Shown: piece by piece, positions 2,235 to 9,705 of the stretch
Layout: each line of letters begins with the position of its first letter
How positions within the stretch are numbered: the first letter of the stretch is position 1
Source of the DNA: Candidatus Omnitrophota bacterium
GTDB taxonomy: Bacteria; Omnitrophota; Omnitrophia; Omnitrophales; Aquincolibacteriaceae
Length of the DNA stretch: 64,000 nt
Reading direction: 5' to 3'
NCBI GenBank assembly: GCA_041674705.1
Contig: JBAYVF010000001.1
Coordinates: forward strand, 129,238 to 193,237
Notes under the pieces: model-generated
The model's database searches: none
Seen by the model: only the letters and a program-made list of their open reading frames with translations
What the model was told of the DNA's origin: nothing
Program-made: the position numbers and the translations under genes

Positions 2235-3269
2235 ATGGAAAAAATACTCTTTTTAGCTCATACAGATTCGAACGGTCATCTTCCGAAGATCGCGCTCGAA
2301 ACCTTGAGCGCGGCCCTTGAGATCCAGAAAGGTCTCGCAGGCTCTACGCTGACAGTCGGTCTTGTCGGAGAGAATGTCCAGGCTGCTGCGGATCAGATCG
2401 CTGCGTGCGGCGCCGCGAAAATTCTCGGAGTGAGCGGGGCTGATTTTGGAATGTCCCGCTACGCGACGGATGTGAAAGCTGCGGAAGCGATCGGAACCGC
2501 TTCCGGCGCGACGATCATGATCGCTCCGGCGACTTCGCGTTTCTCTCGGGCGCTTCCCGGCGCGGCGTTCCGTTTGAAGGCCACGATCGATACGCACGTG
2601 AGCGGTATCCAGATCACAGACGGTGTTCTGCAGATCCAGCGCTGGTATTACCGTCAGCGCATGATGGCAACTTTGACGCGCGCGGCGCGACCCTGGATCC
2701 TTGCGATCGATTCCGGTGTGTTCGAGCCTTGGCAAGGGGCCAAAGGCGCGGCAAAAGTGGAAGCGATCGCGGTTGCTGTGACGGATAAGGAAAAGCGCAC
2801 GAAAATGACAGGCGTTGAAGCGCCTTCCGCGGACGCACAGACCATTCGGCCCGAGGCTGCGATCTTGCTTGTGGCCGGCGCCGGATGGACCAAGAAACAA
2901 ACGGACGGCCAGATCCATGCCAAGGAAGCCGAGAAACACATTCTTGATTTCTTGAAGCATGCCAAGGCGTCGCTTGGGAGCAGCAAATCCCTCGTGGACC
3001 AGGGCTCGGAAGGGGAAGCGGTCCTTTCCTGCATGAGCCATCTGAACCAGGTTGGACAGACCGGCTCCACGCCGCGTCACCCGAAGGGTCTTTCCACCTG
3101 CTGTCATGGCGAAGAACCGCACGTGGTTGGCTGGCGCTTCATTAATGAACGTCGCGCGATCAATACCGACGCTAATTGCGGCTGGGCCCAGGGCAAGGCG
3201 GATGTGCTTTATGTGGCGGATGCTTTTGCCGTCATGGCCAAGGTCAACGAGCTTCTCGCTAAGGGCTGA
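2235..3269 (+). CDS. etfA: electron transfer flavoprotein alpha-subunit-like protein with non-canonical FAD-binding motif
   Basis: Colinear with EtfA. It has VGQTG followed 30 aa later by AINTD (canonical AINKD). The canonical YIAVGISGAIQHLAGM segment reads GLSTCCHGEEPHVVGW here. Confidence 0.7.
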   Translation: MEKILFLAHTDSNGHLPKIALETLSAALEIQKGLAGSTLTVGLVGENVQAAADQIAACGAAKILGVSGADFGMSRYATDVKAAEAIGTASGATIMIAPATSRFSRALPGAAFRLKATIDTHVSGIQITDGVLQIQRWYYRQRMMATLTRAARPWILAIDSGVFEPWQGAKGAAKVEAIAVAVTDKEKRTKMTGVEAPSADAQTIRPEAAILLVAGAGWTKKQTDGQIHAKEAEKHILDFLKHAKASLGSSKSLVDQGSEGEAVLSCMSHLNQVGQTGSTPRHPKGLSTCCHGEEPHVVGWRFINERRAINTDANCGWAQGKADVLYVADAFAVMAKVNELLAKG

Positions 3270-3291
3270 TTTTCAATTTTCAGATTTTAAA

Positions 3292-3332
3292 GGGGCAATT
3301 TCTCCAGGGTCAGGAGAGATTGCCCCTTTTTT
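3292..3332 (+). terminator. intrinsic terminator after the etfB/etfA-like pair
   Basis: GGGGCAATTTCTCC / GGAGAGATTGCCCC stem followed by TTTTTT. Confidence 0.8.
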
Positions 3333-3542
3333 ACATTTTCCCCTCTACAAATAACGCAAGCCGCCCCTTATTTCAGGCTGTTTTTTTTAAAAAAGCGCTA
3401 AAAACACCTGCCATTTTTTAATAGACAAAAGAAACGTTTCAGGTAAACTGTGCCCGGCTTAACAGGCCTTGATAGATCGCACAGTTATCAACCACCCAAA
3501 GATCACCAAACGAAATTGTCGAGACTAAAGGAGGGGTGTGCC

Positions 3543-4175
3543 ATGGTGTTTAAATTCCTGCTTCCCAAAGAAACCAGCTTCTTCAATCTTTTTGATAAAC
3601 AGTCGGATTATGCCGTCCAGGCTGCCACCCATTTTGTGAAAATGGTTGCTGATTATAAAGTGGATGAGACCGAGGTCGGGATCATGAAGGAAATCGAACA
3701 CCTTGGGGATGAAGTAACGCATCAGGTGCTGGATCAGCTCAATGACACCTTCATCACGCCGTTTGACCGCGAAGATATTCACGATCTGGCGAAGAAAATG
3801 GATGATATTGTGGACATGCTTTACACCCTGACCAAGCGTCTTCGTGTTTATAAGATCCTGAGCATGGAGCGAAACCTTACGGAATTTGCCCGCGTGATCG
3901 AAATGTCCGTCAAAGGCGTTTCGCAGGCCGTTAAAGGCCTCCGGGACATGAAAAACAGCAAGGAGATCCTCAAGGCCTGCATTGAAGTGAATAATCTCGA
4001 GAATCTTGGCGATAAGATGCGCGATGATATGTTAGGCGAACTTTTTGAAAAATATGCCAAAGACCCCGTCGCGGTGATCAAGTGGAAAGACATCTATCAG
4101 GACGCGGAAACGGTTCTGGATGTTTGCGAGGACGTCGTGCACGTGGTCGAATCCATTCTCGTCAAACACGCTTAG
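3543..4175 (+). CDS. DUF47 / PhoU-like phosphate-transport accessory protein
   Basis: Begins MVFKFLLPKETSFFNLFDKQ, with an all-helical PhoU-like repeat composition. AAGGAGG RBS upstream of the internal ATG. Immediately precedes a PiT transporter, the classic pairing. Confidence 0.8.
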   Translation: MVFKFLLPKETSFFNLFDKQSDYAVQAATHFVKMVADYKVDETEVGIMKEIEHLGDEVTHQVLDQLNDTFITPFDREDIHDLAKKMDDIVDMLYTLTKRLRVYKILSMERNLTEFARVIEMSVKGVSQAVKGLRDMKNSKEILKACIEVNNLENLGDKMRDDMLGELFEKYAKDPVAVIKWKDIYQDAETVLDVCEDVVHVVESILVKHA

Positions 4176-4188
4176 CGGGGGAGCGATC

Positions 4189-5181
4189 ATGACCACCTGG
4201 ATCCTTTTTCTTATCCTGCTCGCCCTCACGTTCGATTTTCTGAACGGGTTCCACGATTCCGCGAATTCCATTGCGACGGTCGTTTCCACCCGCGTTCTTT
4301 CTCCACAACATGCGGTGATCTGGGCCGCATTTTTCAACTTTATCGCGTTTCTCTTCTTCGGGCTCCATGTCGCCAATACGATCGGCAAGGGGATCATTGA
4401 TATCAACATTGTGGACAGCCAGATCATCTTTGGCGCCCTGATGGGGGCTTGCGCCTGGAATATCATCACCTGGTATTTCGGCCTTCCGACCAGTTCTTCT
4501 CACGCGTTGATCGGCGGGTTGGTGGGCTCCGCGCTTGTGAAAGCCGGGACAGGATCTTTGGTCTGGAGCGGCATCATCAAGACGGTCGCTTTTATTTTGA
4601 TCTCACCAGTGGTCGGGCTCTTCCTAGGCGTGGTTTATGGCGTGATCGTTCACTGGCTTGCCCGGAAGAGTTCGCCGGCTGGGGTCGATCACTGGTTCCG
4701 GAAAGGGCAGTTGGTTTCCGCCGCGCTTTATAGCCTGGGACATGGCGGTAATGACGCGCAGAAGACCATGGGTATTATCGCGAGCCTTCTTTTCAGCGCG
4801 GGGCTTCTCGGAAAAGAATTCCATATTCCTTTCTGGGTCGTGATCTCGTGTCAGGCCGCCATTGCCATCGGGACGATGTTCGGCGGCTGGAGGATCGTGA
4901 AGACCATGGGGCAAAAAGTGGCAAAACTTCGTCCGGTAGACGGTTTTTGCGCAGAAGCAGGAGCTGCTACGAGCTTGTTCATAGCCTCGGCTTTCGGCAT
5001 TCCGGTCAGTACGACGCATACGATCACCGGCGCGATCATGGGGGTGGGTTCTTTGAAGCGTATGAGCGCGGTCCGATGGGGCGTCGCGGGAAGCATTGTC
5101 TGGGCGTGGATCATTACGATCCCGTGCGCGGCGGCGATCTCGGCTATTTCTTACGCTGCGGCCCGATGGGTTGCCCATTAA
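4189..5181 (+). CDS. pitA: inorganic phosphate transporter, PiT family
   Basis: Both PiT signature halves are present: FDFLNGFHDSANSIAT and GHGGNDAQKTMG. Polytopic membrane protein. Confidence 0.9.
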   Translation: MTTWILFLILLALTFDFLNGFHDSANSIATVVSTRVLSPQHAVIWAAFFNFIAFLFFGLHVANTIGKGIIDINIVDSQIIFGALMGACAWNIITWYFGLPTSSSHALIGGLVGSALVKAGTGSLVWSGIIKTVAFILISPVVGLFLGVVYGVIVHWLARKSSPAGVDHWFRKGQLVSAALYSLGHGGNDAQKTMGIIASLLFSAGLLGKEFHIPFWVVISCQAAIAIGTMFGGWRIVKTMGQKVAKLRPVDGFCAEAGAATSLFIASAFGIPVSTTHTITGAIMGVGSLKRMSAVRWGVAGSIVWAWIITIPCAAAISAISYAAARWVAH

Positions 5182-6071: not shown

Positions 6072-7736
6072 ATGCCAAAATCCGAAATCATTGAAACCGA
6101 CATTCTGATCGTGGGCGGTGGCGTCGCGGGCCTCGCGACGGCTATCCATCTTGCGGACCTTGCGGCCGGTTCGGACAAGAAACCCGGTATTCTTGTCCTC
6201 GAAAAGGGGAGCTCTATCGGAAGCCACACGCTTTCGGGCGCTGTGATCGATTCCTCCACGCTGAAGGAACTTCTCCCCGGTGTTGATCCCAAGGATTTCC
6301 CTTTCGAATCTCCCGTCAAAAAAGAAGGTGTTTATTTTTTTACTCCCAAGCTTGCCCTCAAAGCGCCTTTCACGCCGCCTTTTATGGGGAACCACGGGAA
6401 TTATGTGGTTTCGCTCGGGAAGATGACGCGCTGGCTTGCCGAGATCGCGGAAAAAAAAGGCGTGCAGGTCTACCCGGGATTCAGTGTTTCGGAAATGCTT
6501 TATCAAAATGATCGCGTGATCGGGGCGAAGACGATCGATACCGGCGTGGATAAGCACGGTAAGCCGATGGAAAATTTTCAGGCCGGAAATGAGATCCATG
6601 CCAAGATCACGATCCTGGCGGAAGGGCCCCGCGGCAGTCTGATGAAGGCGCTTTGCGGCAAATTGAAATTAGACCGCCAGAGCAACCCGCAGGTCTATTC
6701 CACCGGCGTGAAGGAACTCTGGGATCTTCCGGAAGGAACATTCGAGGCCGGACGGATCATGCACACATTGGGCTTTCCTTTTTCCTTCAATCACTTCGGA
6801 GGCGGCTTTGTTTACGGCCTGAACGGGCGCCAAGTCGTGGTCGGGATCGCGGCAGGGCTGGATTACACCGATCCCACATTCGACTCCCATGCGGCGCTTC
6901 AGGTTTATAAAAAACATCCTTTTATCGCGAAGATTCTCGAAAAAGGGAAGCTCCTGCGGTATGGGGCGAAGACCATCCCTGAAGGAGGGCTTTATTCTTT
7001 GCCGAAGCTTTATCATGACGGGGTCATGATCGTCGGGGATTCTGCCGGATTCTTAAGCATGCCGAGCCTGAAAGGCGTTCATCTTGCGATCGAGTCGGGG
7101 ATGTTGGCCGCGAAGTCCGCATTTGAAGCGCTCAAGAAAAATGATTTTTCGGGAACACAACTCAGCCTTTACGAAACGCTGTTCCAGAAAAGCGCCACAC
7201 ATAAAACCCTTTCGCGTACGCGCAATTTTCGCGCGGGGTTTGGGCACGGGATGATCCTTGGGGCTTTTTATTTCGCGACGCAGATCCTCACCGGAGGGCG
7301 CGGCATCACGCCGTCGGGAAAGATGAAGACGCATGAAGATGCGGCCTGTTACAAGAAGCTCGCAGACGTTAAAAAAACATTTTGCGAGAAGTTCGCAAAA
7401 GAGCTCGTGTTTGATAAACAGCTGACGTTCGACAAGGTAACGGACGTTTATTTTTCAGGCTCTAAACACGACGAAGAGCAGCCCTGCCATCTCCGCGTGC
7501 TGGATTTCAACCTTTGCCGGGAGACCTGCATTCCAAAATACGGCGGGCCGTGCCAGCATTTCTGTCCGGCGGAGGTTTACGAGATCGTGACGGATCTGAA
7601 GACCGGGAAAAAAGACCTGCATCTTCATCCGGCCAATTGCGTGCATTGTAAGACCTGCGATATCAAAGATCCGTTTGGAAACATTGAATGGGCGGTGCCG
7701 TACGGCGGCGACGGGCCCGAATACGAGAATCTCTAA
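6072..7736 (+). CDS. electron-transfer flavoprotein:quinone oxidoreductase (ETF-QO, FixC+FixX-type fusion)
   Basis: N-terminal FAD fold DILIVGGGVAGLATA. The C-terminal 4Fe-4S region CVHCKTCDIKDPFGNIEWAVPYGGDGPEY closely matches the ETF-QO signature. Confidence 0.9.
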   Translation: MPKSEIIETDILIVGGGVAGLATAIHLADLAAGSDKKPGILVLEKGSSIGSHTLSGAVIDSSTLKELLPGVDPKDFPFESPVKKEGVYFFTPKLALKAPFTPPFMGNHGNYVVSLGKMTRWLAEIAEKKGVQVYPGFSVSEMLYQNDRVIGAKTIDTGVDKHGKPMENFQAGNEIHAKITILAEGPRGSLMKALCGKLKLDRQSNPQVYSTGVKELWDLPEGTFEAGRIMHTLGFPFSFNHFGGGFVYGLNGRQVVVGIAAGLDYTDPTFDSHAALQVYKKHPFIAKILEKGKLLRYGAKTIPEGGLYSLPKLYHDGVMIVGDSAGFLSMPSLKGVHLAIESGMLAAKSAFEALKKNDFSGTQLSLYETLFQKSATHKTLSRTRNFRAGFGHGMILGAFYFATQILTGGRGITPSGKMKTHEDAACYKKLADVKKTFCEKFAKELVFDKQLTFDKVTDVYFSGSKHDEEQPCHLRVLDFNLCRETCIPKYGGPCQHFCPAEVYEIVTDLKTGKKDLHLHPANCVHCKTCDIKDPFGNIEWAVPYGGDGPEYENL

Positions 7737-7737
7737 T

Positions 7738-9705
7738 ATGGGACTCAAAATAATTTGTTTGATGAAACAAGTGCCGCTCCCGACCGAGATGCGTATGGGC
7801 GCGGACGGGTTGATGGACCGTACCAAGGCGAAATCCTCGATCAATGCGGATTGCACGTTCGGTCTGGAACAGGGGCTTGAGATCAAAAAGCAGGTGCCGG
7901 ACGCGGAGCTGATCGTGGTTTCCATGGGGCCGACGAGTTTTGAACAGTCCCTTAAAAAAGCCCTGGCTATGGGCTATGACCGCGCGGTTCTTCTCTCGGA
8001 CCGGAAACTGGGAGGATCGGACACCTTTGCCACGGGCTATGCCATTGCCTCGCTTCTCAAAAAACTTGGGTTCTCCAAGGAGAGCAAAGACCCCTTCATC
8101 ATTTTCTCTGGACGCCAAACGACGGACGGGGATACGGCGCATGTGCCTTCCCAGACGGCCGAGAATCTCGGCATCCCTCAGGCGACTTTCGTCGAAAAAG
8201 TAGAGTTCAAGGGAGATCATTTGAAGGTCCGCCGCATCATCGAAGGCGGTTTCCAAGTCCTTAAAGTGCCGGTCCCATGTCTTATTTCAATCGCTCCCAC
8301 CGCGACTCCGGCACGCCGGCCGTCCCTGAAAGGCGCCATTCGCGCGAAAAACACCAAGACCGAGATCTGGACGCTGGATCAGACCGGGGCGGATGCCAGC
8401 GTGGTAGGCCTGAGCGGTTCTCCGACGCTTGTCTCAAAAGTGGTGGATATCCAAAAAGACAGGCCGCCGGTCAATATGATCTCCGGGCATGAACCTAAAG
8501 ATCTTGCAGCCAGCCTTGTCTCCGAGATCGAAAAGGTCAAAGACGCGATCGGCGGAGGCCACGGGCAGCATGCCGGAGCCGGCGATGAAAAAAGTGCGGC
8601 GGGGGAAAAAGCAAAAACGGATGTGGATTTCCCAAGAGTGGATTTTCGTAATGGCGCGCGGGGCGTTCTGACCTGGATCGAAATGCTTGGGCAAACACCT
8701 TCGCGGTCTTCGCTCGAGATCCTGAACCCTGCCAGGAAACTGGCCGATCAGCTCCAGACCCAGGTGACCGCGATCGTGACCGGGCATAACCTCAAGGATG
8801 TGGCTTCTGAGATCATCGCCTATGGTGCCGACGAGGTCGTGGTGGTGGATGATCCGCGTCTTAAAGAATACAGGATCCTGCCGGTCGCAGCCGTGATCGC
8901 GCAGTGGATCGAACACAAGCGTCCCGAGATCGCGCTTTTTGGAGCTACGACCTCGGGCCGTGAACTTGCGCCGAGACTTGCGAGCCGTGTGAGGGCCGGC
9001 GTGACCGCCGACTGCACCAGCCTCAAGGTCGGGGAATACGCGCACCGTATGAAGAAAACTGTTTTTTATCCTGTGCTTGAGTCCATCCGTCCGACTTACG
9101 GTGAAAGCAAGCTTGCGACGATCATCGGGTTTTGGTGCCCGCAGATGGCGACCGCGCGTGCCGGGACTTTTAAAATTTTACCCAAAGATCCAAGCCGGAA
9201 GGGAACTGTGCGCGAATTCACGCCTACTTTTAGAGAGAGCGATTTTGCGGTGGAAGTGCTGGAGGTCAAACGCGAGGCGGGAGGCGGCGATAATCTTTTT
9301 GTCGCGGATATTATTATTTCCGGAGGCCGTCCGGCGGGTGATCATGATGATTTCAAATTGATCAAGGAACTCGCCCAGGCCCTGCAAGATCAGGGGATCA
9401 ATGCTGATTGGGGCGCGAGCCGTCACGCGGTGGATAACGGTTATGCGCCGTACGCGCGCCAGGTCGGGCAGACGGGAAAGACCGTCCGGCCGAAGCTCTA
9501 TATCGCTGTCGCGATCTCAGGGGCCATCCAGCATCTCGCAGGGATGAAAGAATCCGGCAAGATCATTGCGATCAACCAGGACCCGCAGGCCGCGATCTTT
9601 CGCCATGCGGATTTCGGGATCGTCCGTGATTATCAGGAAGTGCTTCCCGAGCTGATCGCCAGGGTCAAGGCCGGCTTTACCTTCGGGCTGGCAACGAGCA
9701 AATAG
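7738..9705 (+). CDS. fused electron transfer flavoprotein beta-alpha polypeptide
   Basis: N-terminal EtfB domain (MGLKIICLMKQVP...) and a Gly/charged linker. The C-terminal EtfA domain has the canonical VGQTGKTVRPKLYIAVAISGAIQHLAGMK. The ATG lies 1 nt after the ETF-QO stop. Confidence 0.85.
   Translation: MGLKIICLMKQVPLPTEMRMGADGLMDRTKAKSSINADCTFGLEQGLEIKKQVPDAELIVVSMGPTSFEQSLKKALAMGYDRAVLLSDRKLGGSDTFATGYAIASLLKKLGFSKESKDPFIIFSGRQTTDGDTAHVPSQTAENLGIPQATFVEKVEFKGDHLKVRRIIEGGFQVLKVPVPCLISIAPTATPARRPSLKGAIRAKNTKTEIWTLDQTGADASVVGLSGSPTLVSKVVDIQKDRPPVNMISGHEPKDLAASLVSEIEKVKDAIGGGHGQHAGAGDEKSAAGEKAKTDVDFPRVDFRNGARGVLTWIEMLGQTPSRSSLEILNPARKLADQLQTQVTAIVTGHNLKDVASEIIAYGADEVVVVDDPRLKEYRILPVAAVIAQWIEHKRPEIALFGATTSGRELAPRLASRVRAGVTADCTSLKVGEYAHRMKKTVFYPVLESIRPTYGESKLATIIGFWCPQMATARAGTFKILPKDPSRKGTVREFTPTFRESDFAVEVLEVKREAGGGDNLFVADIIISGGRPAGDHDDFKLIKELAQALQDQGINADWGASRHAVDNGYAPYARQVGQTGKTVRPKLYIAVAISGAIQHLAGMKESGKIIAINQDPQAAIFRHADFGIVRDYQEVLPELIARVKAGFTFGLATSK

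Follow-up and report, generated by a model that had tools for sequence, protein, structure and literature searches.

Electron transfer flavoproteins (ETFs) are the textbook flavin-only carriers, and their site for flavin adenine dinucleotide (FAD) is among the most conserved of redox signatures. What, then, is an EtfA-like protein in which part of that signature has given way to a segment rich in cysteine and histidine? The question is raised by the open reading frame (ORF) at 2235-3269 of a 64,000-nucleotide stretch, here called the window, from Candidatus Omnitrophota bacterium (assembly GCA_041674705.1, contig JBAYVF010000001.1, positions 129,238 to 193,237 of the forward strand). Positions are those of the window unless another contig is named, and the window features given below all lie on its plus strand. 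The frame is intact and encodes an EtfA-like large subunit of 344 residues (EtfA'), recognized by its Pfam ETF score, its predicted structure and its homologs. The initial annotation, made from the letters alone, had taken it for a neofunctionalised ETF rather than a decaying pseudogene. We find that the ORF encodes one half of an ETF-like heterodimer that is distinct and strongly conserved: it is the alpha subunit, and the beta subunit (EtfB') is encoded at 1422-2231.

The cofactor region of EtfA' was aligned by BLASTP with a fused EtfB-EtfA protein of the same window (7762-9705) and by phmmer with 5ol2_A (C. difficile) and 6fah_A (A. woodii CarE). All three alignments were colinear across the region, with QVGQTG opposite QVGQTG. 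From GQTG (residues 274-277, nt 3054-3065) to AINTD (residues 308-312) there are exactly 30 residues, and the canonical EtfBA of the window likewise reads GQTG, 30 residues, AINQD; the colinearity with EtfA and the spacing of GQTG to AIN(K/T)D proposed in the initial annotation were therefore confirmed. Between these blocks, the canonical (L)YIAVAISGAIQHLAGM lies opposite GLSTCCHGEEPHVVGW, and the only residues in common are G292, H296 and G299, which are the surviving Gly, His and Gly described earlier. CCHGEEPH (residues 289-296, nt 3099-3122) is found in place of the canonical GISGAIQH in the alignments and in the census given below, and the hydrophobic strand LYIAVGI of canonical EtfA is turned into the polar KGLSTCC in the BLASTP alignment. 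The ETF-alpha signature LYIAxG(I/V)SGA(I/V)QHxxG...AIN, a PROSITE-type pattern, is accordingly unmatched: GLSTCCHGEEPHVVGW...AIN keeps only G, H, G and AIN. EtfA' also has two insertions relative to canonical ETF alpha, one of 8 residues ahead of QVGQTG and one of 7 residues after AINTD. The latter was placed by the BLASTP alignment and contains the CGW already noticed in the following segment (Cys315-Gly316-Trp317, nt 3177-3185).

It had also been claimed that the FAD-binding signature as such was replaced. This holds for the GISGAIQH block but not for the rest of the site: QVGQTG and AINxD are unaltered, the ADxxxVxD-x-F block reads ADVLYVADAF, and the G-x-S-R-x-x-V-D block is retained as GSSKSLVD, in which Lys251 (nt 2985-2987) occupies the position of the flavin-stacking Arg. 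In human ETF, the isoalloxazine ring is contacted by Arg249 (pi-cation), Thr266 (N5) and His286 (N1-C2=O) of the alpha subunit (PMC5827430). The corresponding residues of EtfA' are K251, T276 and H296, and all three are invariant in an alignment of 150 EtfA' sequences covering 38-94% identity. Moreover, an Arg-to-Lys variant of Rhodopseudomonas palustris ETF retains FAD and the anionic semiquinone (PMC8958531). On these alignments the flavin-ring pocket of EtfA' looks preserved, and since the SR-VD (Arg to Lys), QVGQTG, AINxD and ADxxxVxD blocks are kept together with the ring-contact residues, loss of the flavin is not implied. The element that has been exchanged is the strand-loop-helix turn GISGAIQ, which we take to be the holder of the FAD pyrophosphate in canonical ETFs (human Ser281-Gly282).

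The new segment proved to be conserved to an unusual extent. Among 5.8 billion proteins searched, EtfA' has thousands of relatives; the best 120, at 66-94% identity, belong to Omnitrophota and Geobacteraceae. When one genome per GTDB species was scanned, at least 593 species proved to encode a relative. The locus analyses took the best 80 of these species loci, from Omnitrophota, Desulfuromonadales/Geobacteraceae, Verrucomicrobiota, Gemmatimonadota, Acidobacteriota, Planctomycetia, NC10/Methylomirabilota and Bdellovibrionales. When the octapeptide lying 11 residues past GQTG was counted in about 290 homologs, CCHGEEPH was found in 272; GCHGEAPH occurred twice, CCYGEEPH, FCHGEEPH and CCPGEEPH once each, and a handful of reads were plainly frameshifted. 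Random drift of the motif, the outcome that would have spoken against the initial annotation, is refuted by these counts. In the 150-sequence alignment K251, T276, H282, C290, H291, G292, E293, P295, H296, G299, W300, R301, F302, C315, G316, W317, D323, Y326 and D329 are invariant, while C289 and E294 are kept in at least 90% of the sequences. Mean column identity is 93% in segment 269-331 as against 63% in domain I. Within 64 loci three Cys and four His of EtfA' are 100% conserved, and at each motif position both or all synonymous codons are in use while the amino acid stays constant, which indicates purifying selection on the motif itself. EtfA', EtfB' and the motif are thus under strong purifying selection across many phyla, as the rejection of a decaying pseudogene had supposed. 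A rare sister clade, consisting of P0144 (contig L083, 1724-2701) and P0399, is 38-40% identical and carries GCHGEAPH, QCGW and a more canonical hydrophobic strand, AGIAIG. A search for intermediate forms seeded with P0144 returned one close relative only, P0399. Judged by these motifs, the clade may mark a transitional stage of evolution that links the canonical with the CCHGEEPH form.

Profile searches place EtfA' among the ETF proteins, under the cut-offs of the curated NCBIfam models. The N-terminal domain model ETF (PF01012) matched residues 5-184 with 76.3 bits (cut-off 26.7). The model of the C-terminal FAD domain, ETF_alpha (PF00766), gave 16.8 bits for EtfA', under its cut-off of 27; it was matched at E <= 0.01 by 12 of the 21 family members (best 5.5e-8). 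Despite the sub-cut-off score, the homology of the protein to ETF alpha is clear from these comparisons. Among the curated NCBIfam ETF equivalogs (EtfA/FixB, mycofactocin EtfA, AcrA and others), EtfA' exceeded no cut-off, and its top match, PRK03363, scored 15.7 bits where 549 are required. The solved relatives nearest by sequence are 5ol2_A and 6fah_A, at about 20% identity (phmmer, E 8.5e-7). Source databases name these proteins only 'electron transfer flavoprotein subunit alpha' or 'hypothetical protein', and a literature search for divergent, non-canonical or Fe-S ETFs found neither the motif nor the module described.

The structure of EtfA' was predicted with AlphaFold2. With an alignment of 21 sequences, the predicted local distance difference test (pLDDT) was < 50 at residues 275-295 and 317-326; with 150 sequences the fold, not the loop, was mended, and the model reached a pLDDT of 88. 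Foldseek matched this model to 5ol2_A with E 9e-20, and the template modelling (TM) score was 0.78 to 4kpu_A and 0.72 to human 2a1u_A. As modelled, EtfA' has the two-domain ETF-alpha fold. The elements of the cofactor region follow each other in the model as a strand at 284-288 (KGLST), a loop at 289-297 (CCHGEEPHV), a short helix at 298-302, a strand at 305-310 (ERRAIN), the loop bearing C315, a strand at 324-327 and the C-terminal helix. Because this order is that of the canonical topology, the CCHGEEPH motif is predicted to occupy the turn formed by the strand end, the loop and the helix start.

The gene itself is framed by translation and termination signals. A Shine-Dalgarno-like AAGGG is read at 2223-2227, 7 nt before the ATG, and the stop codon of the EtfB-like gene at 2229-2231 lies 3 nt 5' of the EtfA-like start, a spacing that makes translational coupling of the two genes probable. 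An intrinsic terminator at 3289-3329, consisting of a 17-bp stem followed by a T-run, begins 20 nt past the EtfA-like stop and closes the module. The intact frame, good ribosome-binding site and terminator of the initial annotation are all accounted for by these features.

Does the pair have partners of its own? Tblastn comparison of the 80 loci revealed the order acyl-CoA dehydrogenase (ACAD)-like gene, ETF-quinone oxidoreductase (ETF-QO)-like gene, EtfB, EtfA in most of those loci that extend far enough to show it, in all of the phyla, with identities outside Omnitrophota of 57-69% (ACAD), 56-65% (ETF-QO) and 66-77% (EtfB). A 39%-identical relative of low GC content has the same four genes in unchanged order. 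All-against-all ORF clustering detected no further recurrent gene family in the flanks of the 80 loci, and in five annotated neighbourhoods, among them those of Geobacter, a 5.1-Mb genome and two further metagenomic contigs, the flanks were unrelated and gave no clue to a pathway. The EtfA' pair therefore belongs to a four-gene module of its own, which fits neofunctionalisation, and it coexists, as a paralog, with a canonical ETF/ETF-QO pair located 3 kb further downstream. The start of the window cuts into the module, and its first two genes were taken from a public contig, L001 (ENA ERZ27247358 k141_2139437).

In the ACAD-like protein (693 aa, L001 4306-6387), Pfam recognizes no more than Acyl-CoA_dh_N and the final part of Acyl-CoA_dh_1. 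It keeps the catalytic Glu ('YEG', TYEGPECVQR opposite IYEGTNQIQR) and an LTEP-type FAD motif; Cys478 (GITEDCPGF), His60 and His248 are 100% conserved. It ends in a C-terminal extension of about 180 residues, and residues ~529-593, past YEG, show a second, weak alignment with the beginning of the C-terminal helical domain of ACADs. This alignment suggests a partial duplication of the C-terminal domain, which would resemble the situation in very long-chain acyl-CoA dehydrogenase (VLCAD) and acyl-CoA oxidases.

The presumed acceptor is represented in the window by the 3' end (last 189 codons, 1-570, with Pfam Fer4 matches) of a 617-aa ETF-QO/FixC-like gene. The second ETF-QO/FixCX-like gene reported upstream at 1-570 is thereby confirmed; an AlsD gene (580-1347) that lies between it and the EtfB-like gene had been overlooked. 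The complete gene (L001 6483-8336) contains the Pfam quinone-binding domain ETFQO_UQ-bd. It matched porcine ETF-QO (2gmh) with E 1.5e-30 over residues 125-429 and, far more weakly, Thermotoga maritima FixC (7koe_C, E 1.2e-4). At its C-terminus the single-cluster ETF-QO domain is replaced by a 2x[4Fe-4S] ferredoxin-like domain with the motifs CxxCx4Cx3C and CxxCxxCx3C, all eight cluster Cys being 87-98% conserved in 46 homologs. Two Cys motifs in place of a single-cluster domain identify the protein as a FixC-FixX-like fusion.

The small subunit, EtfB' (269 aa), is preceded by an AGGAGG Shine-Dalgarno sequence at 1412-1417, as read from the sequence. It matches Pfam ETF with 35 bits and is near no NCBIfam cut-off (best 33.6 bits against 445), in agreement with its earlier description as a divergent EtfB-like partner. 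Its nearest solved relatives are CarD (6fah_B, E 2e-7) and C. difficile EtfB (5ol2_B). EtfB' homologs are 66-98% identical, and their genes directly precede the EtfA-like gene in essentially every locus. The GADTxAT segment of the aligned canonical and bifurcating EtfB proteins reads GFMDSREVA in EtfB', a stretch not conserved within the family, and GRQxxDGDT, which we take to be the AMP/ADP loop of EtfB, is replaced by GGCASASRDAGTT. In the R. palustris ETF, the T94,97A variant was found to hold one FAD only (PMC8958531). With both segments changed, a bifurcating flavin in EtfB' is unlikely. As a separate matter, the window has C where L001 has T at position 2020, the sole mismatch in 13,269 bases. 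This changes residue 200 of EtfB' from Leu to Pro. At least 97% of 48 homologs have Leu at this position (GWATGNLPEP), and the EtfB' copy of the window may accordingly carry a damaging variant or a sequence error.

At the level of the module, an ETF-fold heterodimer that serves an ACAD-type donor and an ETF-QO/FixCX-type acceptor is the probable picture. Electrons from an acyl-CoA-type thioester substrate would enter the FAD of the ACAD-like dehydrogenase and pass to the cofactor site in domain II of EtfA'; from there they would proceed to the two [4Fe-4S] clusters and the FAD of the ETF-QO-like protein, and at last to membrane quinone. For the heterodimer we prefer, with the balance slightly in its favor, the reading of an ETF-like carrier dedicated to the dehydrogenase and the quinone reductase that are encoded with it, in which the flavin has been kept and the loop rebuilt. 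What the rebuilt loop carries is a more tentative point. Judging from the conserved residues, C289, C290, H291, E293, H296 and C315 might form a site adjoining the retained flavin, most likely a metal or Fe-S centre, a proposal to which we give somewhat less than even credence; the same residues could alternatively provide a different way of holding the dinucleotide tail. The metal site is suggested by the two to three invariant Cys, three invariant His and invariant Glu of the remodelled region, by the small polar residues that replace a buried hydrophobic strand, and by a conservation of the loop that far exceeds the need of phosphate binding. Furthermore, the vicinal Cys that close a strand and are followed by Glu may be likened to the CCxxE of cluster N2 in NuoB, a protein of similar, flavodoxin-like alpha/beta fold. 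The wider proposal, that the mobile domain carries an Fe-S or other metal centre built from CCH...H...C, whether in place of FAD or beside a flavin, is from the same residues possible and rather doubtful. Two further cofactor arrangements were considered and set aside. Covalent flavinylation through Cys or His is unlikely, for the loop would lie at the pyrophosphate end of FAD and not near C8 or C6 of the ring; a c-type haem site was rejected, there being no CxxCH and the protein being cytoplasmic.

Several points weigh against the reading of a dedicated carrier with a rebuilt loop. Residues 291-300 have low confidence in the model (pLDDT ~54). Since the sister clade has GCHGEAPH, only C290 and C315 are universal, which weakens a Cys3-ligated [4Fe-4S] model. 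The mapping of the GISGAIQ turn onto the pyrophosphate is presumptive, and so is that of N310, D323 and D329 onto the adenosine contacts. The named hosts are all metagenome-assembled genomes, and the substrate, the direction of electron flow and the type of quinone are pure inference.

The rival explanations differ mainly in what they do with the FAD. It may be supposed that the FAD of domain II is absent and that an Fe-S cluster or mononuclear metal on C289, C290 and C315 with His has taken its place. If the replaced block is, as we presume, the one that binds the FAD pyrophosphate, the Glu pair E293 and E294 would repel it there, and the polar KGLSTCC strand, the tandem Cys with Glu recalling NuoB, the completely conserved Cys and His of the 64 loci and the sub-cut-off score of the Pfam FAD-domain model point in the same direction. 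We nevertheless hold a flavin-free protein to be unlikely, as K251, T276 and H296, the matches of the flavin-ring contacts, are invariant and AINxD and ADxxxVxD likewise (PMC5827430), the sister clade does without the first Cys and the second Glu, and the candidate Cys are only three. The reverse supposition is an ordinary FAD-containing ETF, group-1-like and serving one dedicated dehydrogenase, in which the Cys/His loop is a lineage-specific holder of the FAD phosphate or ribityl and no extra cofactor is present. Most of the FAD-site blocks and the ETF-alpha fold are indeed intact, a majority of the family members examined match ETF_alpha, and on general chemical knowledge His can replace Ser in phosphate binding. 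Eight near-absolutely invariant consecutive residues plus CGW across phyla, however, exceed the usual demand of phosphate binding, nor do two acidic residues at a helix N-terminus, or vicinal Cys paired with a third one, invariant and carried by an inserted loop, agree with it, so that this explanation too appears improbable.

A bifurcating system of the EtfABCX/FixABCX type would oxidise NADH at a second FAD and split the electrons between quinone and ferredoxin. The nearest solved relatives by sequence (5ol2, 6fah and 7koe) are bifurcating ETFs, and the partner is FixC-like with a FixX-like 2x[4Fe-4S] domain. EtfB', by contrast, lacks the GADTxAT segment (compare the single FAD of the T94,97A variant) and has its ADP-binding loop replaced, and the module brings its own ACAD-like donor; bifurcation is thus very improbable. 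Lastly, with a canonical ETF/ETF-QO pair next door, redundancy is conceivable and EtfA' could be a decaying pseudogene or a paralog adrift. The intact frame, the 93% conserved segment with its saturated synonymous change, the carriers in at least 593 species and the conserved operon partners refute this, and it deserves practically no weight.

The genes around the module are of a more local kind. The gene of the AlsD (alpha-acetolactate decarboxylase) family at 580-1347 (Pfam 258 bits, TIGR01252 244 bits) lies inside the operon only in close Omnitrophota relatives among the 80 loci. Downstream, profile searches identified a canonical ETF-QO with a Fer4_ETF_QO domain (6072-7736) and a single-polypeptide EtfB-EtfA fusion with the AISGAIQH signature (7762-9705), whose best NCBIfam matches are acryloyl-CoA reductase ETF subunits of the bifurcating type. 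The canonical and variant systems are adjacent, here 3 kb apart, only in the Omnitrophota lineage. Being confined to close Omnitrophota relatives, neither the AlsD gene, which had been considered as a part of the module and was rejected, nor the canonical ETF-QO and fused EtfBA are module members. The N-terminus of the AlsD protein resembles a lipoprotein signal (MKKSLPFLFLLFWVGC), and an exported AlsD homolog in a cytoplasmic redox operon is odd. Directly past the module terminator, at 3450-5181, there are a PhoU_div/DUF47-type gene and a PHO4/Pit-type phosphate transporter, in a position conserved only among Omnitrophota relatives. The GC skew of the window is positive in all 4-kb bins and the cumulative skew rises monotonically over the 64 kb.

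The significance of the locus is that in hundreds of species from at least eight phyla a paralog family has rewritten a block of the FAD-site signature into a near-invariant Cys/His/Glu motif. Should a metal or Fe-S centre be present, the swinging-domain scaffold of ETFs would be able to carry a non-flavin or mixed cofactor, and EtfA' would be the first carrier of the ETF fold that does not depend on flavin alone for its redox chemistry. The module would then constitute an unrecognised dehydrogenase-to-quinone chain, a new route by which abundant lineages of soils and sediments connect the oxidation of acyl thioesters with the quinone pool; the chain would be widespread in Acidobacteriota, Verrucomicrobiota, Gemmatimonadota, Planctomycetota, Desulfuromonadales and Omnitrophota. 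Should the site bind FAD only, the module would still be an unannotated, highly conserved system of four proteins.

How does the system compare with those already known? The ETF groups, 'group 5' included, were reportedly defined by Garcia Costas et al. in 2017 (J Bacteriol 199:e00440-17). Group 5 ETFs are presented in later papers as non-bifurcating and least characterised, with no functionally studied member (PMC6085437, PMC9888536). The members named there are from Desulfitobacterium (Firmicutes), and no Firmicute-titled record is among the best 80 loci here. The bifurcating group 2 EtfAB proteins (5ol2 Bcd-EtfAB, 6fah CarCDE and 4kpu of A. fermentans) share an ACAD-family partner with the present module and are the closest solved structures: in sequence the alpha subunit matches with E 8.5e-7 and the beta subunit with 2e-7, and in fold 4kpu_A comes nearest. 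They differ in that identity is about 20%, the bifurcating-flavin and ADP motifs are missing from EtfB', the loop of EtfA' is remodelled and EtfA' has no N-terminal ferredoxin domain. With the Thermotoga maritima EtfABCX/FixABCX complex (7koe), the module has in common an ETF pair, a FixC-like quinone-reducing flavoprotein and a 2x[4Fe-4S] FixX-like unit. Here, however, C and X are fused in one protein of 617 aa that is nearer to mammalian ETF-QO than to FixC, an ACAD-like gene is part of the module, and the ETF sites are altered.

The canonical group 1 ETFs (human 1efv and 2a1u, Paracoccus 1efp) share with EtfA' the two-domain fold (TM 0.70-0.72), an EtfB-type partner, the QVGQTG, AINxD and ADxxxVxD blocks, the Thr and His flavin contacts, and the pairing of the genes with an ACAD-type donor and an ETF-QO-type acceptor. 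Unlike them, EtfA' has CCHGEEPH for GISGAIQH, Lys for the stacking Arg and insertions of 8 and 7 residues (the latter with CGW); it stays under the cut-offs of Pfam ETF_alpha and all NCBIfam ETF models, and the AMP-loop motif is not kept in EtfB'. The ETF fold and the ETF-like role are therefore of a kind already known, and what is new here is an ETF variant with a CCHGEEPH loop in a dedicated module.

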